A program made the translations under genes and the position numbers. The notes beneath the pieces are model-generated. The model was not told the origin of the DNA. It ran no database searches and saw nothing but the letters and a program-made list of their open reading frames with translations. Positions 3,646 to 35,957 of a DNA stretch of 38,200 nucleotides are shown piece by piece (within the stretch, counting starts at the first letter, position 1; each line of letters begins with the position of its first letter). This DNA is from Escherichia phage sortregn. The DNA is taken from the sequence record MN850588.1. One strand, given 5' to 3'.

Positions 3646-4464
3646 ATGGCGATCTACAAAAAAGAGGACGTTCTCGCGGCGATGCCCGGCAAATGGGAAC
3701 AGGCGCTCCTCGATCTTTGTGGCTGGGACCGCAAGGCGTTTAACGGCAATCATCAACCTTGCCCGATCTGTGGCGGGACGGACCGCTTTCGCTGGGGCCA
3801 TAAGCAACAGACGAAGAAGGCGGAGGGCTTCGGCTACTGTTCCGGCTCCTGTGGCGGCGCTCGTGATGGCATGTTTTGGTTCATGACCAGCCGATCGCAG
3901 CCGTTCAACGAGGCGATCAACGACCTGGGCGACTGGATAGGCGGACTCACCCCGGAGAAGCGGGAAACCATCGTCAAGGAGGCGCGGAAGTATGCCCGCC
4001 AGCAGGATAAGCCCGCGCAGGACTGGGAACTCACCCCGGAGGACGTGGACAAGATCATGAGCAAAGGCACGATGCGCGACGGATTCCTGTATGTTCCATG
4101 CGCTCGTCCACTGGGGGGATCCCTGGGGCCGTGGTGCAACGTGGCGAAGATCGGCTCCGACAGGTCCGTGGTGTTTGCCGCTGGTGGCCCGACGTGGGGC
4201 GCGGTAGGTCTGATCCACCCAGTGCCAGACGCTCCGGTGTATCTGGTGGCGGATCCGGTCCATGCGGTGAACGTGGCGGCGCGAGGGGAGGCGGAGGTCT
4301 GGCTTACGTTCCGGCCTATGAACGCGGTCCAGGCGTCGGCGATATATGACGGCGATCGGGAGATCCGGTTCGTCTACACTGACCCGGACGAGGTTTTCCT
4401 GTACGGCTACGAGAGGACGGGGAGGCCATGCGTCGGCGGGCATCTTGCCGGGGCGTTCGGGTAA
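3646..4464 (+). CDS. DNA primase (zinc-ribbon plus TOPRIM-like region)
   Basis: HQPCPICGGTDRFRW and GYCSGSCGG match the primase zinc-binding ribbon of P4-alpha-like primases; later DGD acidic motif; GGAGGG SD upstream. Confidence 0.65.
   Translation: MAIYKKEDVLAAMPGKWEQALLDLCGWDRKAFNGNHQPCPICGGTDRFRWGHKQQTKKAEGFGYCSGSCGGARDGMFWFMTSRSQPFNEAINDLGDWIGGLTPEKRETIVKEARKYARQQDKPAQDWELTPEDVDKIMSKGTMRDGFLYVPCARPLGGSLGPWCNVAKIGSDRSVVFAAGGPTWGAVGLIHPVPDAPVYLVADPVHAVNVAARGEAEVWLTFRPMNAVQASAIYDGDREIRFVYTDPDEVFLYGYERTGRPCVGGHLAGAFG
4111..4121 (+). repeat. CTGGGGGGATC 11-mer copy
   Basis: Exact match; frame-checked against primase residues L156-G-G-S159. Confidence 0.85.
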
Positions 4465-8798: not shown

Positions 8799-9011
8799 AT
8801 GTTTTATCACTCGCAGGACCTACCGGAGCGCGGCGGCGTTCTACTGACGAAGATCGCGGATCCTGGTTCGGCCCAGGTACAAGCGCGGGATCTGGTCTGG
8901 CTGGATGCTGACCCGACGGGCGGATCGTGGGAGCCACTCCCGGCAGTGTTCGACAAGGTGGACGCCTCCGGGCTGGAGAATCACCTCTCCTACTTCATCC
9001 CATACGCATAA
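8799..9011 (+). CDS. hypothetical protein
   Basis: 70 aa ORF with AGGAG SD, same operon as Ig-like gene. Confidence 0.45.
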   Translation: MFYHSQDLPERGGVLLTKIADPGSAQVQARDLVWLDADPTGGSWEPLPAVFDKVDASGLENHLSYFIPYA

Positions 9012-9040
9012 AAAAGGGGGCCAATCGGCCCCCTGTTTAC
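9010..9040. terminator. bidirectional terminator between convergent genes
   Basis: A6, GGGGGCC-AATC-GGCCCCC hairpin, then TGTTTAC. Confidence 0.65.
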
Positions 9041-9558
9041 TGCTGACGCTCCACGGCGTCGTAATTCACTTCGCAGACCTCCCCGGCGGTGATCGCCTTC
9101 TCCGCTATATCAGCATACCGTCGAGCAGCTTCTCCAGTCCCTCGGAGCAAGTCGGAATACATTCGGGCGGTCTTTTCCCCTGACGCCCTTCCGAGGGCAG
9201 CGGTCTGATCAGCGGCTTCGCGTCTGGCGTTCTCTTTGGCGGCTCGTTCGAGCAACCGATCAAGGGCAGCACCAGCAGCAGCAGAAGCGGCGCGAGCTTT
9301 TGCGGCCTGTTCGTTCGCATATTTTACGGACTCCTCGCGGGCAATGGCCCGGCCTTGTTCAATGATACGGGCGGCGGCTTGTGCGTTCGCTTCCTGGGTG
9401 GATTCCTTCGCGATCCGAGCATTGTCGCGAGCGGTCCAGCCCCGGTCCGTCCAGGCCGAGCCAGCCCAGAAAGATCCCCCCAGCGCCAGCAGCACGACAA
9501 CGACGAGCAGCAGCGATCGCCAGTGAGTCGAAAGGAACACGCGGAGGGCGGCGATCAT
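9037..9558 (-). CDS. Rz-like i-spanin
   Basis: N-terminal TM segment LLLVVVVLLALGG, coiled-coil rich; start overlaps endolysin stop (ATGA); embedded lipoprotein ORF. Confidence 0.6.
   Translation of the reverse strand: MIAALRVFLSTHWRSLLLVVVVLLALGGSFWAGSAWTDRGWTARDNARIAKESTQEANAQAAARIIEQGRAIAREESVKYANEQAAKARAASAAAGAALDRLLERAAKENARREAADQTAALGRASGEKTARMYSDLLRGTGEAARRYADIAEKAITAGEVCEVNYDAVERQQ
9105..9320 (-). CDS. Rz1-like o-spanin lipoprotein, embedded out of frame within Rz
   Basis: Signal peptide with lipobox LIGC, proline-rich mature part, fully nested in Rz gene. Confidence 0.55.
   Translation of the reverse strand: MRTNRPQKLAPLLLLLVLPLIGCSNEPPKRTPDAKPLIRPLPSEGRQGKRPPECIPTCSEGLEKLLDGMLI
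9473..9483 (-). repeat. CTGGGGGGATC 11-mer copy (sense strand of Rz gene)
   Basis: Exact match on minus strand; frame-checked against Rz residues L26-G-G-S29. Confidence 0.85.
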
Positions 9559-12851: not shown

Positions 12852-12991
12852 ATTGCCCTCCGTTGTGTGGAAATCAATATTACATAACGTTACCATGATG
12901 TAAAGCCCAACCGTGATAATAATTGACTTTACAGTGGTAACAAGGGCGGGTAACATTGCGACCAGTAACGCAACCATGAGGTGATTAAACA
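12852..12991. promoter_or_regulatory. divergent promoter/operator region with GGTAAC repeats
   Basis: 140-bp intergenic region between divergent operons; GGTAAC at 12936-41 and 12949-54, AGTAAC at 12964-69, GTTACC at 12888-93; sigma70-like hexamers TTGACT 12923-28 and GATAAT 12914-19. Confidence 0.45.
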
Positions 12992-14656
12992 GTGATTGAC
13001 TACGACGACGACAACCAGCCAGATCGCAGCGAGCAGGAGATCAGGGAGATGATCCGCCCAGAGCCGACGCCTCTCGAACCCGTCCCGGACTGGATGGGCC
13101 AGACCCCGGAGCCGACGGACGAGGAGGTGGCCCGGCAGATGGCGATCGAGGCTGAACGCGAAGCGGCAGAGCTGGAGTATTACCGATTCAACGACGACAA
13201 CCCGGACGATCACGCCTACGAGGTCGCGGTGAAGGATAACGAGGTGACGCTGGTCAAGCGCTCCGAAATGACCGAGGAGGAGCGGGCGGAGGCTTACCTG
13301 GCGAAGCAGCGCGAGAAGGACCGCAAGGCGATCGCCGACCTGCTGGCAGACGAGCCGGACCCCCTGCTGGAGGAACTGAACAAGGGCAACGAGATCAAGC
13401 CCGTTAATTACGTGATCCAGAACCTGATCCCGGAGCGCTCCGTGGGCTTCCTGGTCGGCGAGTCCGGCGCTAAGAAAACCTTTGCGGCCCTCCATATGGC
13501 CCTGTGCGTGGCGCGTGGCGTTCACTTCGGCGGCTTGCCAGTACGACAGGGATCCGTGATGTACTTCGCGCCGGAGGATGCGAACGGCGTCCGTGAGCGT
13601 TACGCGGGCTGGAAGTACACTCAGAACAAGAACGAGAACTTGCCTAATTTTTGGGTACTGGGCCAACAGGTCCCACTCCACCGCGAGGATCTTCTCCGCA
13701 AGTTCGGCGCGAGGATCAAGGACTCCGCATTTTTCCAGGCGAACCCCCTCTCCCTGATCGTGATCGATACCTACAGCGCCAACTCCGCCGGGCAGAAGGT
13801 CGGACAGACGCCAGTCAAGAAGGACGGGAAGATCGCGGAATGGGTAGGCGGGCGCGACTTCGACGAGAACGACAATAACGTGGCGGCGATCCTCATGAAG
13901 AACGCGGCAGACCTGGCGGACATGCTGGAGTGTGCCGTGATGATCATCCACCACACCGGGAAGGACACGGAGCGCGGCGGGCGCGGCGCGTCGGCTCTCA
14001 AGGCTAACGCAGGTTTTGAGGTCCTCGTGAAGAAATGCGCGAAGGACCGGGAGCTTTTCATCATTGAGCACTCGAAGGCGAAAGGCTGTGCGCTGTTACC
14101 GCCGCGAGCCATGCGCACGAAGGCGGCGAAACTCCCGCCGGACCTGGTGAAGATGAAGCGCGACGCGCTGGCCCGCATGACCGGACTCGACAACGAGGCG
14201 AAGAACAACCCGGCAGCGTGGGAGATCGGCGACAACCTGGGGACGCTGGTCGTCGTGAACAAGGTCGAGCCAGTCCCGACCGATAAGGCCGAGGAGAAGG
14301 ACGCGGGCGAGGAGAAAGGTCGCACCAAGCAGGAGGAACACGCGCTCCAGCTTTTGGCCTACGTGGTCGAGTACAACCACGATCGCGCCAGCAAGAACTA
14401 CAGGACGCCGAAACTCACAAAGGCGGCGCTCCGTGAGTGGGCGAAGAACTTCGCGGACCCGTCGCTGGATAAGCATCAATTCGCCCGCGCGTTCAAGTAC
14501 GCCACCGAAAAAGCGATGGTGATCAAAATGGCCGGGGATCAGACGCTAACCGCATCAACGGAAGCGCCCGCACTCCTGGGAGGGATCCGCGAACAGCAGC
14601 CACGATCCACGGACTGGAAACCAACCTCCGGCGGAGGTGATCTTGATGACTTTTGA
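12992..14656 (+). CDS. RecA-like replicative ATPase/helicase (AAA_25-type, RepA/DnaB-like)
   Basis: 554 aa; Walker A GESGAKKT, Walker B IVIDTYS, IIHHTGK motif; GTG start with GAGGTGA SD. Confidence 0.65.
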   Translation: MIDYDDDNQPDRSEQEIREMIRPEPTPLEPVPDWMGQTPEPTDEEVARQMAIEAEREAAELEYYRFNDDNPDDHAYEVAVKDNEVTLVKRSEMTEEERAEAYLAKQREKDRKAIADLLADEPDPLLEELNKGNEIKPVNYVIQNLIPERSVGFLVGESGAKKTFAALHMALCVARGVHFGGLPVRQGSVMYFAPEDANGVRERYAGWKYTQNKNENLPNFWVLGQQVPLHREDLLRKFGARIKDSAFFQANPLSLIVIDTYSANSAGQKVGQTPVKKDGKIAEWVGGRDFDENDNNVAAILMKNAADLADMLECAVMIIHHTGKDTERGGRGASALKANAGFEVLVKKCAKDRELFIIEHSKAKGCALLPPRAMRTKAAKLPPDLVKMKRDALARMTGLDNEAKNNPAAWEIGDNLGTLVVVNKVEPVPTDKAEEKDAGEEKGRTKQEEHALQLLAYVVEYNHDRASKNYRTPKLTKAALREWAKNFADPSLDKHQFARAFKYATEKAMVIKMAGDQTLTASTEAPALLGGIREQQPRSTDWKPTSGGGDLDDF

Positions 14657-14911
14657 CCGGGGCGTGTGTTGGTAACGAGTAACACCCCCCCTTATAGGGG
14701 GGGATGTAACGTGTTACCGCAACCCACAAGGCCGAAAACATAGTTTTTTATGTGTACTGTTACCGACAAGCGACCGTAATCAAATCAATCATTTATGTGT
14801 GATTCGGTAACGGGGAAAGTAGCGAATCGGTCGCGGGGAAATCGGGGGGTAAAAATCGGGGGTGACCCCCGACAAAATCCCCGCCAAATAATCATTGATA
14901 AGTGATGCGAA
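14657..14911. promoter_or_regulatory. repeat-rich non-coding region, candidate replication origin/regulatory region
   Basis: 255 bp non-coding after replicative ATPase gene: C7-TTATA-G7 hairpin 14685-14703, six (G/A/T)GTAAC sites, TTATGTGT twice, three AAATCGGGG-like repeats, GGGGG-TGA-CCCCC palindrome. Confidence 0.4.
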
Positions 14912-15100
14912 ATGAGCGACGATAACAACGTTATTTTATTCCCCAGACGGACACCGATCGGAGAGGTTCAACCAGTACGATCGAACGTCTGGATCGAGCG
15001 CTTCGGAATGTGGAATTACTTCCTGATGGTAGCGACAACCATCGGCGCGATCGTGGTCGGACTGGCGGCGATCGTGTTTAACATGCTGGGCCTGATGTGA
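14912..15100 (+). CDS. small membrane protein
   Basis: 62 aa ORF with one C-terminal hydrophobic helix. Confidence 0.4.
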   Translation: MSDDNNVILFPRRTPIGEVQPVRSNVWIERFGMWNYFLMVATTIGAIVVGLAAIVFNMLGLM

Positions 15101-15328
15101 GGCCCGTCACGACGACGAGGAAACGAGGAGATGATGATGAATGACGAACACGGCAAGAAATCCAACGTAGCGGACGTCTCGCATATGTATGTAGGCCCGA
15201 ACCAACGCGCCTCACTGCTGGAGAAGGCGTTCGAGATGTTCAGAGCGGCGGCGTCGTGATCCTGGACTCGTCCGTGGTCGAATGGTCCGAAGTGGAGGCA
15301 TACCGCCCGGCAAAGTGAGGGCCGGGAC

Positions 15329-15339
15329 CTGGGGGGATC
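15329..15339 (+). repeat. CTGGGGGGATC 11-mer copy
   Basis: Exact match, third reading frame relative to codons (T-W-G-D-R in track ORF). Confidence 0.8.
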
Positions 15340-15425
15340 GCCAGGCGGAGCGGCCTCCCTACTACGTGCAGATCAATAACCGCGTAGTGACCCCGGCGGA
15401 GTTCCACCGCCAGAAGCAGGAATTT

Positions 15426-15554
15426 ATGAGGGGCGCGGTGATTGTAGTCCCACCGGACGAACCAACGTTCCCGATCGGCGAGATATGTCGCGGGATCCTG
15501 ATGATGTTCGGGCTATTCGCCCTGCTGTGGTTCGTGCTTACCTTCTTAAGATAA
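15426..15554 (+). CDS. possible small membrane protein (42 aa)
   Basis: Internal ATG of ORF 15282..15554 preceded by AGGA; hydrophobic C-terminus; start uncertain. Confidence 0.3.
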   Translation: MRGAVIVVPPDEPTFPIGEICRGILMMFGLFALLWFVLTFLR

Positions 15555-15619
15555 CGCTTGCATGATGTACGCCCCGGCGATATGCTGGGGCCGTTTCCAC
15601 CCACGAGAGAGATCGAACA

Positions 15620-16258
15620 ATGTCAATATTCACTTTCATTAATCGCAAACTGGGCCGTTTCAAGACGTGCCGGACCTGCAAGGATAAGCACCCTTGCGGC
15701 TTCGGGGAATGGCCTTCGATGTTCTTCATGTGCGACAAGTGCCAGAACAAGACGCTGGAGGAGCTATTCGAACCGGGACGCCTTAACCGCCTGACGATGG
15801 TCCACCAGACGGAGGAACAGATGGCAGAGTCCCGCCGCCGTCTGGGGCCGTTGATCGACAGCCTGGTGAGCCAGCAGCGCCAGAGCAAACAAACCGCAGC
15901 CCAGACCCAGGCAGCGAAGGCCGCGCAGTATCGCGACCCGCGATCGGTGGCAATGGCCCGCCAGATGGCGCACGACCCACGCCCGGCGGCTCGTGGTACG
16001 CAGCAGGATCCGATCTCGGACCCGATGCACCTCCTCAACCCGTTAAACCCGCTCTCCCCAGTGTCTCCGCTCAACCCGCTGAACGACTGGGACGACAGCA
16101 GCCACCGCCACCACGTCGCGCCAGCCATGAGCGAGCCGACGGAATGCCACACCACCAGCCACTCCTCCGGCTATGAGTCCAGCAGCAGCGACTACAGCAG
16201 CAGCAGCTACGACAGCGGGAGCGACTCCTCCAGCTACTCGTCCGGGGGCTGTGACTGA
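15620..16258 (+). CDS. zinc-ribbon protein with Pro/Leu repeats and Ser/Tyr/Asp-rich C-terminal tail
   Basis: CRTCKDK...CDKCQNK four-cysteine ribbon; LNPLNPLSPVSPLNPLN; tail SSSSDYSSSSYDSGSDSSSYSS encoded by short AGC repeats. Confidence 0.55.
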   Translation: MSIFTFINRKLGRFKTCRTCKDKHPCGFGEWPSMFFMCDKCQNKTLEELFEPGRLNRLTMVHQTEEQMAESRRRLGPLIDSLVSQQRQSKQTAAQTQAAKAAQYRDPRSVAMARQMAHDPRPAARGTQQDPISDPMHLLNPLNPLSPVSPLNPLNDWDDSSHRHHVAPAMSEPTECHTTSHSSGYESSSSDYSSSSYDSGSDSSSYSSGGCD

Positions 16259-16554
16259 TGGCGATGGACAAGGACCGCAGGGTGGGCCGCACGAAGGCGG
16301 AAGCGCAACTCCTGAAACTCAAGCTGTACAAGGGGCCGGAGTGCAAGGTCCACGGCGGGAACTTCACCCGGTACACGTCAAACGGCGCTTGTGTGCTGTG
16401 CCGTAAGCTGGAGGCCGACACGACGAAGGGCAAGAGCCGGGGCTATATCGCCAAGAAGCGCGACACGCTGGCGTTTAATCACCCGGTTTCACCCTGGCCC
16501 ATAACCGCCGAGAATATGCACCTGTGCCCGGATCTCTCGTTCAAGCGAACTTGA
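16258..16554 (+). CDS. zinc-ribbon protein
   Basis: 98 aa; CKVHGG...CVLCRK four-cysteine motif; ATG overlaps previous stop. Confidence 0.5.
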   Translation: MAMDKDRRVGRTKAEAQLLKLKLYKGPECKVHGGNFTRYTSNGACVLCRKLEADTTKGKSRGYIAKKRDTLAFNHPVSPWPITAENMHLCPDLSFKRT

Positions 16555-16630
16555 TCACGCTTCCGTAACCGCCGATAATCCTCCGCGTAACCCTGTGACA
16601 CTCAGGCGATAAACGGAGGATTTTTTCATC
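16501..16630 (+). promoter_or_regulatory. candidate late-operon control region upstream of terS
   Basis: Direct repeat ATAACCGCCGAGAAT (16501) / GTAACCGCCGATAAT (16565), third CGTAACCC at 16586, GATAAT hexamer 16574-79. Confidence 0.35.
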
Positions 16631-17185
16631 ATGGCAAACGAACAGAACCTTAAGAAGGGGAACCGCTTCTCCAAAGAGAACCAGCCGGAGCGACGCGGCA
16701 GGGCGAAGCAGAACCGGACGTTACTCCTCGAAGCACTCCGCAAGGTTCGGATCAAGGAGGCCACCGGGCGCAAGGTCGAGGACATCGATCCAAACACTGG
16801 CGAGGTGAAGGTGAACAGCGAAACGGGCGAGCCGATCATGGTGGACGAGTTCGTGGAGGTCCCGCTCACGGAGGACATGTTCATCCAGCGAGCGATCCAG
16901 ATGGCCCTCGTAGACGGTTCCATGATGCGCGACATCATGAGCCGATTAATCCCCTACACCAAGCCGACCAGCCCGACCTATTGCTTTGAACTGACCGGAT
17001 CCACCCCGTCCGAGCGTATCACCGAGATCGAGGACCTGGTGGCAGCGGGAGAGCTTCCGTTCGACGCGGCGGAGTCTATGGTGAAGATGATCCGCCACGG
17101 CGCGGAAGTGTTCGAAATGTCCGAAATGGTCAAACGACTGGACGCACTGGAGGCCCGACTGAATGGCGAAGCCAAAGACGAATAA
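16631..17185 (+). CDS. terminase small subunit (P22 gp3-like)
   Basis: N-terminal KKGNRF motif as in P22 gp3; GGAGGA SD; upstream of TerL. Confidence 0.55.
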   Translation: MANEQNLKKGNRFSKENQPERRGRAKQNRTLLLEALRKVRIKEATGRKVEDIDPNTGEVKVNSETGEPIMVDEFVEVPLTEDMFIQRAIQMALVDGSMMRDIMSRLIPYTKPTSPTYCFELTGSTPSERITEIEDLVAAGELPFDAAESMVKMIRHGAEVFEMSEMVKRLDALEARLNGEAKDE

Positions 17186-17597
17186 ACTCCCGCCGGACAC
17201 TTACGGCAGACTGGAGGCGCTGGGCCTGAAATGGTTCACCGCCTCCCCTTACCCTTATTTCATCGTGTGCTTTGACCCGCAGGACGAGGAGATGGTGGCG
17301 AAGCTGGGCGAATGCTTCCCGGACTGGAACCGCGAGAAGCCGATCCAGCAAGGCGTCGCCATTGAGTACCACGCCGCCGACGTTAAGCTGGTGTTCGTAG
17401 GCGTCCGCCGGGGCCAATACTGGCGGACGACCATCGTCCACGAGATCGTCCACGTTAAGAACTACATCGGCGACACGCTGGGGATCGAGTGGGACGTGAA
17501 CAACGACGAGCCGGAGGCTTACTTCGTGGGCTGGCTGTTTAACATGATGGAGCAAACCTTCCAGGATCTGGGCTATGGCAAAAAATCGAAAGGATAA
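17163..17597 (+). CDS. hypothetical protein with HExxH motif (possible zincin-like)
   Basis: 144 aa ORF between TerS and TerL; HEIVH followed by acidic EPEAYF. Confidence 0.45.
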   Translation: MAKPKTNKLPPDTYGRLEALGLKWFTASPYPYFIVCFDPQDEEMVAKLGECFPDWNREKPIQQGVAIEYHAADVKLVFVGVRRGQYWRTTIVHEIVHVKNYIGDTLGIEWDVNNDEPEAYFVGWLFNMMEQTFQDLGYGKKSKG

Positions 17598-33531: not shown

Positions 33532-35925
33532 ATGTCCGACTTAGACACGCTTTCGGCGGTTTCTATGCCGTCCGTCCCATTCCTCCGCATCGATCGCTTT
33601 GCGGCGGTGGCGGACGGTGGGCTTTACGTGGGCCAACCCGACACGGACCCGACGCAGCCGGAGAACCAGGTCCCGGTCTACATCCTGAACGAGGACGGAA
33701 CCCTGACCCAGATCGAGCAGCCTGTGAAGATCGGGATCGCGGGCTATCCGGTTTATAACGGGCAAGTCGTCAAGGTCCTGACGCAGCCGGGGACCTCTCT
33801 CGACGTCCGCGACCGGAACAACGTCCAGATGTTCTACTTCGACAACCTGACGAAGTACGACCCGGAACAGATGTGGAAACTACTCCAGAGTTCGACGGGC
33901 TGGGAGTTCGTGGGGACCACTTACGGCAACGTGAAACAGGCCATTCAGGGCTATATCACGCCGTGGAACTTCGTCGGCAAGCCGGAATATGCGACCGAGA
34001 CGGAAGCGATTCAGGCCATGTTTGACTATGCGAAGGCGAATAACCTCCCGATCCGCGCTTTCAACTGGGAAGGCACGACCGCCGGGATCGTCACCGCAGA
34101 GAACATCACGATCGTCGGCGGGATCTGGAACCTGGTCGGCAATAACGCAAAGTTCACTAATTGCGTGGTTTTTGATGGGATCTGGCGTCGCCGCTCTATC
34201 TGGTCAAAAGGGACTTACTTCGAGCGTTGCCGCTTCGAACAATGCCGCATCCTTCACGCGTCGGACGACGTGCTGATCCTTAACTCCAAGTTCTCCGGCA
34301 AGGTAGGCAGGAACGTGGCCTCCATCGTCATGCAGGGGAACCAGGTCGAAGGCGACAACAACAAGGACTATTTCGGGCGTTTACGCGTCGAGAACTGCGA
34401 GTTTAATGATATTTCTGGGGGGATCTTCCAGCAGGGCGGGCACTTCAAAATCACCCGCATGATCTTGCGTAACCTGACGTTTACGAACCTGGACTCCGAC
34501 GCGATCGAGCTTAACGTGGTGAATGATGGCTCCTTTACCGAAGGATGCACGATCGAGAACATCGAGATCTATAACTCTAACGCCACGCTTGCGAACTCCA
34601 ACTTAGGGATCGGGATCGGTGTGGCTGGTGCTGGCCCGTACTCGTGGGACGCGCCGGAAACCAACTACGCGAAAAACTTCGTGATCCGCAACGTGACCGC
34701 CGTCGGCGTTCGCCAGTGTGTCCACGTCGAGGTCGGATCCGACTTCGTGATCGAGAACGTGAACGTAAACCCGGACGCCAACAAGTCGATCGGGACTGGC
34801 CTGATCGTCTCCGGCGTTTATATCGCTGGTTCGAAGAACTTCACGATCAACGGCGTAAGCGGAACCCCTGTTCCGTCCGCGACTGTGCCGATCACGGACA
34901 TTCGTATGATCTGCCTGGTGCCGGGACCTACTGACCAATCCGCCCAGCAGTACAATACGCTTTGCCGTGACTACACGATCCGAAACGTGGACGCAAAGGG
35001 CGCATGGGTGCAACTGTGGGTAGACGCTTACCCCGGCTATGGTTCGATCCAGCCACACAGCAACCACGCGACGATCGAAAACGTGGACTGTTATCGCTTC
35101 TCGTGCTTCGGCGTGGGGACCGTGACGACGCTCCGAAACATCACTTGCACCACGTCCGACTGTTTAGGCGATACCTCCACCGGGGGCGGCTATAAAAACC
35201 AGGCGGGATCCGGTACGCTGTTATATATCTTCACTAAATCGGTGCTGAATATTGACGGCTTCTACTCGGAGACTCCGGGCGAGATCTACCGCAAGCCGCG
35301 CTACATGTACACCAATGTGAAGAACTGCAACATTCAGGTAGATCAGGGCGCTAACTTCGACGGACGCGTGGGCGCTCAACTGACGCCGATCACGAAGGCT
35401 TACGCGCCGCAGATCACGGCCCACGGTGGATATGGGAACTTCTTCCCGCGTGGTCGGGAGTTCGACGTGGGCGATCAGGTCTTTGTCTACGACTACGGCA
35501 GCAACGACCCGGCTAATGGTCCTGGGGGGATTGTGGCGCTCAAGGCTTACGTGGTGACGGGCTTCGGCGCGTACTACCCGGCGAACACTGGCGCGTCCAC
35601 CCTCCGCGCAGCAGCAGCGGGCGCTAAACGCGTTTACTGTGCGCTGACGCCGACCGGGACCAGTACCGGATCGCCGTGGCTGTACACTGACACGCTGACC
35701 GCCGGGACGCGTATCAAGATCACGACCAGCGTCGGACAGGAAACCGTGACGATCACCCGCGCACCGTTCCAGCCGCTGAACGATAACGACAACACGGACA
35801 ACCCGGCGAACACGTCGTTACCTATCGCGATCGAGTTCACCCCGGCGCTACAGGGTAGCGTGGCGGCGAACGCTCGCTTTACGATGGCTTACCCCATCAC
35901 CACGCGACCGCCGATCTCCGCATAA
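33532..35925 (+). CDS. tailspike protein, P22-type head-binding N-domain plus beta-helix receptor-binding domain
   Basis: ORF 33520..35925, second ATG 33532 preferred (GGAG SD); YVGQPDTDPTQPENQVPVYILNEDG resembles P22 gp9 head-binding domain; Asn/Gly/Val-rich body. Confidence 0.8.
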   Translation: MSDLDTLSAVSMPSVPFLRIDRFAAVADGGLYVGQPDTDPTQPENQVPVYILNEDGTLTQIEQPVKIGIAGYPVYNGQVVKVLTQPGTSLDVRDRNNVQMFYFDNLTKYDPEQMWKLLQSSTGWEFVGTTYGNVKQAIQGYITPWNFVGKPEYATETEAIQAMFDYAKANNLPIRAFNWEGTTAGIVTAENITIVGGIWNLVGNNAKFTNCVVFDGIWRRRSIWSKGTYFERCRFEQCRILHASDDVLILNSKFSGKVGRNVASIVMQGNQVEGDNNKDYFGRLRVENCEFNDISGGIFQQGGHFKITRMILRNLTFTNLDSDAIELNVVNDGSFTEGCTIENIEIYNSNATLANSNLGIGIGVAGAGPYSWDAPETNYAKNFVIRNVTAVGVRQCVHVEVGSDFVIENVNVNPDANKSIGTGLIVSGVYIAGSKNFTINGVSGTPVPSATVPITDIRMICLVPGPTDQSAQQYNTLCRDYTIRNVDAKGAWVQLWVDAYPGYGSIQPHSNHATIENVDCYRFSCFGVGTVTTLRNITCTTSDCLGDTSTGGGYKNQAGSGTLLYIFTKSVLNIDGFYSETPGEIYRKPRYMYTNVKNCNIQVDQGANFDGRVGAQLTPITKAYAPQITAHGGYGNFFPRGREFDVGDQVFVYDYGSNDPANGPGGIVALKAYVVTGFGAYYPANTGASTLRAAAAGAKRVYCALTPTGTSTGSPWLYTDTLTAGTRIKITTSVGQETVTITRAPFQPLNDNDNTDNPANTSLPIAIEFTPALQGSVAANARFTMAYPITTRPPISA
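34415..34425 (+). repeat. CTGGGGGGATC 11-mer copy
   Basis: Exact match; frame-checked against tailspike residues S299-G-G-I302. Confidence 0.85.
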
Positions 35926-35930
35926 AGCAA

Positions 35931-35957
35931 AGGGGCCAATTAAGGCCCCTTTTTTTG
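35931..35957. terminator. bidirectional intrinsic terminator between tailspike and leftward operon
   Basis: AGGGGCC-AATTA-GGCCCCT hairpin followed by T7; T-rich on the other strand too. Confidence 0.7.

Follow-up and report, generated by a model that had tools for sequence, protein, structure and literature searches.

The window analysed in this study is the whole 38,200-nucleotide stretch of Escherichia phage sortregn (MN850588.1), a relative of Salmonella phage Lumpael (PMC7552041). The window is a Murrayvirus genome like that of Lumpael, which is 99.3% identical to it in the region treated below. The genome is arranged in blocks by gene orientation, with a divergent promoter region at ~12.9 kb. 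Canonical terminator hairpins were found at the two convergent gene junctions (9006-9043 and 35925-35957), and both consist of an A-tract, a GGGGCC-type stem, and a T-rich tail (T7 at 35950 and a weaker TGTTTA at 9034). The gene of an AAA_25 helicase opens a 23-kb rightward block that continues with small genes, the terminase, and P22-like structural genes. Between the helicase gene and the first downstream gene lies a gap of 255 bases (14657-14911), and the features in and around it are collected in Table 1.

The replication context of the gap consists of the RepA-like helicase, to which RSF1010 RepA (1g8y) is a weak match, a separate T7-type primase (gene 3646-4464), SSB, and Erf, while RusA, nucleases, and two methyltransferases are phage-encoded as well. 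No DNA polymerase was found among the window ORFs scanned against family libraries. The helicase ends in an acidic tail (...DLDDF), and in all fully aligned Murrayvirus/Sortsnevirus-like helicases the tail is acidic and closes with an aromatic residue (D-L-x-D/E-F, encoded at 14642-14653 in the window), while the helicase of Serratia phage Susuwatari ends in EEQF. The tail is similar to the C-terminal tails of SSB and T7 gp4, which recruit replisome partners.

Table 1. Features of the helicase gene, its upstream region, and the gap that follows it (window coordinates)
Feature	Position	Strand	Basis or remark
Divergent early promoter region with four word copies: 12889(-), 12937, 12950, 12965(+)	12877..12990		
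RepA-like (AAA_25) replicative helicase gene, 554 aa	12992..14656	+	Pfam AAA_25 E=1.3e-25; alignments
Codons for helicase residues about 446-521, predicted winged-helix domain, proposed GGTAAC reader	14327..14554	+	
48-bp imperfect palindrome GGTAAC-GA-GTAAC-A / C7-TTATA-G7 / AT-GTAAC-GT-GTTACC	14671..14718		Repeat finder, folding
Core of the palindrome (C7-TTATA-G7), TATA-like centre between a pyrimidine and a purine run	14685..14703		Sequence
AT-rich stretch containing TTTATGTGT twice	14735..14800		32% GC over 14737-14796
Further word copy GTTACC, adjoining CCGACA	14759..14764	-	
Direct repeat GAWTCGGTnnCGGGGAAA, two copies at 14801 and 14824, period 23	14801..14841	+	Repeat finder
Further word copy TTCGGTAACGGGG	14806..14811	+	Of the single sites, the best conserved between genera
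Alternation of G/C runs and A-tracts every ~11-13 bp, with two copies of AAATCGGGGG	14812..14892		
Hairpin 2, TCGGGGGT/ACCCCCGA	14856..14872		T5 tail on minus strand only
Nearly invariant block AATAATCATTGATAAGTGATGCG	14887..14909	+	Core ATCATTG identical in 17/18 phages (L020: ATCATTA); surroundings vary
First downstream gene, conserved 62-aa ORF	14912..15100	+	Sequence suggests small membrane protein

The motifs that an earlier note had described in the gap were all recovered from the sequence and with a repeat finder, with small corrections. The C7-TTATA-G7 hairpin, the GTAAC repeats beside it (14672, 14679, and 14706), the inverted repeat GTAAC-GT-GTTAC (14706-14717), and the two occurrences of TTTATGTGT (14747 and 14792) were confirmed. 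GGTAAC sites are present at 14671 and 14806 as claimed, while the one placed at 14759 reads as the reverse complement GTTACC. From a proposed tandem triplet, two exact copies of AAATCGGGGG stood (14839 and 14853); the third copy is the degenerate GAATCGGTCGCGGGG and forms part of a separate 18-nt direct repeat (GAWTCGGTnnCGGGGAAA). With the loop reduced to 3 nt, the stem of the C7/G7 hairpin can reach 8 bp (CCCCCCCT/AGGGGGGG), and the hairpin is enclosed by the 48-bp palindrome, whose 24-nt arms are 79% complementary.

Downstream of the palindrome, the AT-rich stretch contains a weak promoter-like element of conserved position, consisting of CCGACA (14763-14768), an 18-bp spacer, and AATCAT (14787-14792). 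It also contains AATCAATCATTTA (14783-14795), a candidate IHF site matched to the consensus by eye. With respect to AT content, 14737-14796 ranks only about 8th among the 60-bp windows of the genome, and an easily melted element could also be sought in the palindrome, at its TATA centre. The alternating array that follows may form curved DNA, as far as curvature can be inferred from its letters. Its sequence is not conserved, and two relatives (L022 and L027) have a GCGGCATTTT-type unit three times in this place, in L022 with an exact 11-bp period. Hairpin 2 is nested in an outer pair of GCGGGGA (14833-14839) and TCCCCGC (14877-14883); it is present in many relatives in variable form, and the orientation of its tail is not conserved. 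On the minus strand, hairpin 2 and its TTTTT (14856-14880) resemble a leftward intrinsic terminator, and the nearby genes all run rightward. Close relatives can have T5 tracts at the very positions of the A5 tracts flanking hairpin 2 (L017 compared to IME_EC2). The nearly invariant block at the end of the gap contains the hexamers AATCAT (-10-like) and TTGATA (-35-like) and is a direct repeat of 14787-14806 with 80% identity. It could be a promoter element or a site recognised by a protein of high conservation, for instance the small terminase.

The homologous locus was collected from 18 phages, comprising GenBank records of Murrayvirus and Sortsnevirus as well as metagenome-assembled contigs reached via helicase homologues. 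Relatives were obtained from protein database and contig look-ups, while a helicase scan of IMG/VR gave three loci, two of them copies of known genomes. In this small and phylogenetically related set, an imperfect palindrome of 50-70 nt was found 12-25 nt past the helicase stop codon in 18 of 18 Murrayvirus/Sortsnevirus-like genomes. All of them share a core in which a TATA-like centre separates a pyrimidine run from a purine run; the stem sequence varies and the pairing is kept. Variants of the core include C7-TTATA-G7, CCTCTCT-TATA-AGAGAGG, CTCCCTGT-TTATAT-ACAGGGAG, CTCTCTCT-ATAT-AGAGAGAG, and C7-TAAA-G7. In the palindrome alignment (A3), 76.6% of cells were paired compared to ~50% with slid partners, and 14 of 20 pairs had changed on both sides. 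As the alignment pair count is blurred by out-of-register CT/AG repeats, sequences were also folded individually, and G-T accounted for only 6% of the pairs predicted in this way. This low share suggests that the symmetry is kept at the level of DNA rather than of RNA from one strand.

Serratia phage Susuwatari, with a helicase of 39% identity, has a 72-nt version of the core (36+36 nt), followed by three copies of GTCAGGGATG and a clear sigma-70-type promoter. This very long inverted repeat, an extreme form of the core found in the window, is all-pyrimidine/all-purine and lies within a dyad of ~130 bp on the 3' side of the helicase gene (L012 3762-3895). According to the earlier note, absence of the repeats from related phages would refute its reading, and the architecture was found in all 18 relatives and in the distant Serratia phage. 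The AAATCGGGG "iterons" of the same note were not conserved past close relatives. In Pantoea phage PSKM, the homologous helicase is followed by a 1.5-kb "non-coding" gap (L014 1485-2957) with several GGTTCGAnTCC-type T-arm motifs, for which reason it probably holds tRNA genes not annotated in the record.

Within the sortregn genome, GTAAC/GTTAC occurs six times in the gap compared to 0.42 predicted from its genome density (P=5e-6). Dinucleotide shuffles of the gap contained 0.86 on average, and 0/2000 shuffles reached six. Shuffles folded less well than the gap, whether it was treated as DNA (z -3.2) or as RNA of either strand (z -4.0 and -3.4). Perfect 8-bp hairpins are not unusual, with 5 in the window and 3.4 +/- 2.0 in shuffles, and the C7/G7 hairpin is significant because of its conservation in relatives, not because of statistics within this genome. 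The word sites are only 5-7 bp long and lie in either orientation at distances of 7, 27, 7, 46, and 48 bp; regularly phased direct iterons of about 17-22 bp were not found among them. GcrA/GANTC sites were dropped as candidates with 2 in the gap and 0.6 expected, which is no enrichment.

The change in GC skew that had been proposed as a check on an origin at 14.7 kb was absent, and cumulative skew has no inflection there, skew being a weak criterion for a 38-kb phage in which it is dominated by transcription. The cumulative minimum falls at about 12-13 kb, at the flip in gene orientation, and AT skew likewise follows orientation. Since this local minimum coincides with the switch of orientation, GC skew is uninformative for the gap.

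Inverted copies of a phage-specific word of 5-7 bp flank the palindrome core, and further copies occur deeper in the gap, around the AT-rich stretch. The word is GGTAAC in the window and GTAACC/TGTAAC, CGTTAAC, or ATGTTAY elsewhere, and each phage's own word was enriched in its gap (18/18 phages). The top gap hexamer of each phage also occurred in 3-9 copies in the 150 bp upstream of the helicase gene, compared to ~0-3 in the other 4 kb. The exception is the IME_EC2/sortsyn class, whose own top hexamers are found only about once upstream of the helicase gene. A cross matrix of words against phages was block-diagonal. When the whole genome of ST231 was considered, its word clustered only in the gap and in the helicase upstream region, and in Susuwatari an unrelated word, AGGGATG, clusters at the same two places.

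In the upstream cluster of the window, the word coincides with promoters. At the rightward helicase promoter (TTTACA-17-TAACAT), it is located in the spacer, as the -10 element (GGTAACAT, GGTTACAAT), and just downstream, while the leftward promoter (TTTACA-16-TAATAT) has one copy in its spacer. This layout of the divergent promoter region was found in 16 phages, each with its own word, and is of the kind expected for repression. A third promoter-like sequence, TTGATC-17-GATAAT at 16551-16592, is located upstream of the genes preceding terL and carries GTAAC in the spacer and just downstream. Its design is the same as that of the helicase promoter, which suggests control by the same factor. As the word overlaps three promoters, the "regulatory hub" that the earlier note had offered as an alternative is true at least in part. 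The divergent promoter region at 12.9 kb is also an alternative location for an origin, since it has the same sites and the skew minimum.

The C-terminal domain of the helicase is confidently predicted by fold comparison to be a winged helix, with FtsK gamma among the fold matches. Sequence comparison of this domain with PDB and Pfam gave nothing significant, the ETS winged-helix matches having E ~1. A helix DFFHAFEHATK is present in both lineages with GTTAAC-type words. Phages ST231 and sortsyn were compared by a 60-bp alignment profile, as a blastn identity map of the pair was too coarse for small patches. Their locus is 90-100% identical except for two divergent patches, namely the helicase promoter region and the helicase C-terminus together with the gap. 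Between these two phages, whose words differ, the helicase is 98, 96, and 54% identical in the N-terminus, core, and C-domain, respectively. Between ST231 and L019, which have the same word, the respective values are 75, 94, and 87%.

The class of the word thus tracks the helicase C-terminal domain and no neighbouring protein. The two leftward genes, the zinc-ribbon protein, and the two genes upstream of terL were considered as other readers of the word, and none tracks word class. The 62-aa ORF was rejected as it is 98-100% identical between phages with different words, and the variable small genes do not track the word either; some of them, ORF2-9, are absent from the window. The comparisons support the view that the GTAAC sites have the behaviour of operators or of sites for an initiator, being phage-specific, clustered solely in non-coding DNA around the helicase gene, and co-varying with the C-domain, and it is this C-terminal domain that appears to read the word. 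Being neighbours, the C-domain and the gap would be inherited together in any case, and a functional coupling is argued for only by the promoter patch, which lies apart from them.

Judged from sequence comparison, the best explanation of the gap is a conserved cis-acting region that would be bound by the neighbouring helicase and that is most likely a replication origin overlapping with transcription control, a reading given about an even chance of being correct. No paper on the gap region was found in the literature. The earlier origin reading is supported in part, by the conserved repeat architecture and the initiator-like sites, while no skew transition was found, AAATCGGGG is not conserved past close relatives, the sites are unlike classic iterons, and the AT-rich segment is unexceptional for this genome. 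Helicase subunits would attach via the winged-helix domain to the inverted sites that flank the core and assemble there, and opening would begin at the TATA centre or in the adjoining AT-rich DNA. The separate T7-type primase and the host polymerase would then take over, and the acidic tail of the helicase may recruit both. Helicase bound at its own promoter would stop further helicase synthesis, resulting in autorepression.

A more far-reaching version of this reading is put forward only tentatively. A self-loading RepA-type helicase, an interchangeable winged-helix "address" domain, and two matching site clusters might form a swappable cassette of replicon specificity, in which the words would define "specificity types" of replication that are exchanged between phages by recombination. 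The palindromic origin with its pyrimidine/TATA/purine core would be one cluster, and the promoter of the helicase itself would be the second. By analogy, such a cassette may be the counterpart in bacterial viruses of the T-antigen/ori design.

The main rival to the origin reading is a purely transcriptional role, which is serious even though it is considered rather unlikely. The winged helix or another factor would act as repressor or activator at GGTAAC operators, the gap would provide an attenuating or stabilising 3' stem-loop of the helicase mRNA and one or more regulated promoters of the small genes, and the origin would lie elsewhere. Such a role would explain much of the pattern, since copies of the word lie over the -35/-10 of the helicase promoter, in the spacer of the leftward one, and on the third promoter at 16551-16592. 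The gap itself offers the position-conserved CCGACA-18-AATCAT and, in the invariant block, TTGAnn-17-TAnnAT, and in Susuwatari the corresponding place is taken by a strong sigma-70-type promoter; a scan of the gap for consensus promoters was nevertheless empty at 9/12 matches. The palindrome begins right past the stop codon in the manner of a terminator, yet hairpin 1, the C7/G7 hairpin, lacks a U-tract on either strand, differs in this from the two clear terminators of the genome, and is unlikely to be a standard terminator. An intrinsic terminator with a stem-loop and at least 5 U in 8 nt was not found at hairpin 1, the tails being ATGTAACG (plus) and TGTTACTC (minus), and a terminator scan of the gap found none. 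Moreover, the density of sites (6-10) and their palindromic arrangement around a non-operator core of 20-70 bp exceed the needs of a promoter, and the factor that tracks the word is the replicative helicase.

Packaging is an improbable function of the gap, which would then be a terminase recognition (pac) site or a hairpin for the processing of concatemers at a nearby genome end. High-frequency read ends in IME-EC2 mark a defined genome start with a terminal redundancy of ~300 bp (PMC3896407), and the start of its virion DNA was mapped experimentally to the read AAATCAGGCGTCGCGGATATCTCGCGTATG (PMC3896407, Table S4). This read aligns to AAATCCAACGTAGCGGACGTCTCGCATATG, which starts at about 15158 in the window, some 250 bp past the gap, so that by homology the terminal redundancy would span ~15158-15460, just downstream of the gap. 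Several related GenBank records begin in or beside the gap, but start points of records are often arbitrary or copied from a reference. In T7, a palindrome lies beside the concatemer junction, which counts for packaging, as does the ATCATTG block, identical in 17/18 phages and thereby a match for the very conserved genes upstream of terL. On the other hand, the two genes upstream of terL, one of them presumably TerS, are 93-97% identical across word classes, the word also occurs in the helicase promoter where it has no packaging role, and the cut site lies 250-500 bp away, inside a gene. Sites that co-vary with the small terminase at the packaging cut, as expected of a pac site, were not found. 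Still less probable is a structured non-coding RNA, an RNA primer, or an antisense RNA with the hairpins as functional units. The gap does fold significantly better than shuffles on both strands, and hairpin 2 with its T5 run resembles an intrinsic terminator of the minus strand. However, being palindromes in the DNA, the elements fold equally well on both strands, few of the pairs (6%) are G-U, hairpin 2 is not conserved and neither is the orientation of its tail, and no convincing promoter was found. No Rfam family matched the gap at its gathering threshold, the best hits at permissive thresholds being mir-6644 with 24.7 bits (threshold 82) and glmS with 19.5 bits (37), and a scan for tRNA and tmRNA found none.

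Three further candidates were rejected. A T7-like or N4-like hairpin promoter with a TATAGGG-like centre was dropped as the ORF list has no frame of the size of the N4 virion RNA polymerase, which has ~3,500 aa. A rolling-circle nick site in the hairpin loop was set aside with no HUH protein among the proteins scanned, and a protelomerase or recombinase target was set aside as the small recombinase gene of Lumpael is absent from the window.

In its inverted sites around a dyad, its A/T-rich neighbour, and the presumed autoregulatory sites at the promoter, the proposed origin is reminiscent in design of phage P4 and SV40. The P4 alpha protein is a primase fused to an SF3-type helicase with a C-terminal winged helix that reads a short repeated word, and its sites are ori and crr. 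As in the window phage, two site clusters lie in cis near the helicase gene. In contrast, the window phage has a RepA/RecA-fold AAA_25 helicase with a separate primase gene, and P4 is without the pyrimidine/purine palindrome. Only AAA_25 was detected in the helicase, not a primase, an SF3 helicase, and a DNA-binding domain in one chain, and no sequence homology to the P4 alpha system was found, so the likeness is one of design and not of family. The large T antigen of SV40/polyomavirus is an SF3 helicase with its own origin-binding domain. The SV40 ori resembles the gap in that inverted copies of a 5-bp word surround a central dyad with an A/T tract beside it, and further copies of the word over the early promoter provide autoregulation. 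Proteins, host domain, and sequences are unrelated, and the analogy is again limited to design.

RSF1010 RepA belongs to the same fold family as the phage helicase, according to the weak match to 1g8y, and the RSF1010 oriV combines repeats, GC-rich and AT-rich segments, and palindromes as the gap does. In RSF1010, however, binding is the task of a separate protein, RepC, whose sites are direct iterons of 20 bp at regular spacing, and the palindromes are primase signals, whereas the helicase of the window phage appears to carry the binding domain itself and the sites are 5-7 bp in both orientations. In lambdoid phages, the binding domain of O adjoins its cognate sites and both are exchanged together as a cassette, similar to the helicase C-domain and the gap, but in lambda the sites form part of the O gene itself, and the O protein is no helicase. 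FtsK gamma and KOPS share with the phage helicase a C-terminal winged helix that reads a short word and belongs to a RecA-fold hexameric motor. FtsK is a translocase guided by dispersed and oriented words, while the words of the window phage are clustered in the candidate origin. Intrinsic terminators resemble hairpin 1 in being GC-rich stem-loops directly past a stop codon; hairpin 1 differs from them in its missing U-tract and in the protein-site repeats that flank its stem.

If the origin reading is true, it would provide a defined origin for high-GC enterobacterial podoviruses (Murrayvirus, Sortsnevirus, and relatives), a group of which some members are under evaluation for phage therapy. 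The helicase would find its own origin through a modular winged-helix domain, and the natural specificity variants would make the protein-DNA code testable by swaps of domains and sites. It would also explain the locus as a hotspot of recombination mosaics and provide parts for phage-derived replicons. If the role is only regulatory, the gap would be an ordinary cluster of operators and promoters.

Further downstream, similarity to Lumpael breaks at 15241, within the presumed terminal redundancy, and returns at 17572, the start of terL. Over 15242-17571, Lumpael has ~5.2 kb of small genes compared to 2.3 kb in the window, and homologues of ST231 ORF2-9 are absent. The break could be a natural deletion or mosaic, or an effect of assembly at genome ends. 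Within this segment, a 212-aa protein (15620-16258) has an N-terminal CxxC...CxxC zinc-ribbon-like segment that differs from that of Lumpael and a serine-rich C-terminal half that is identical, and its gene is thus a mosaic.
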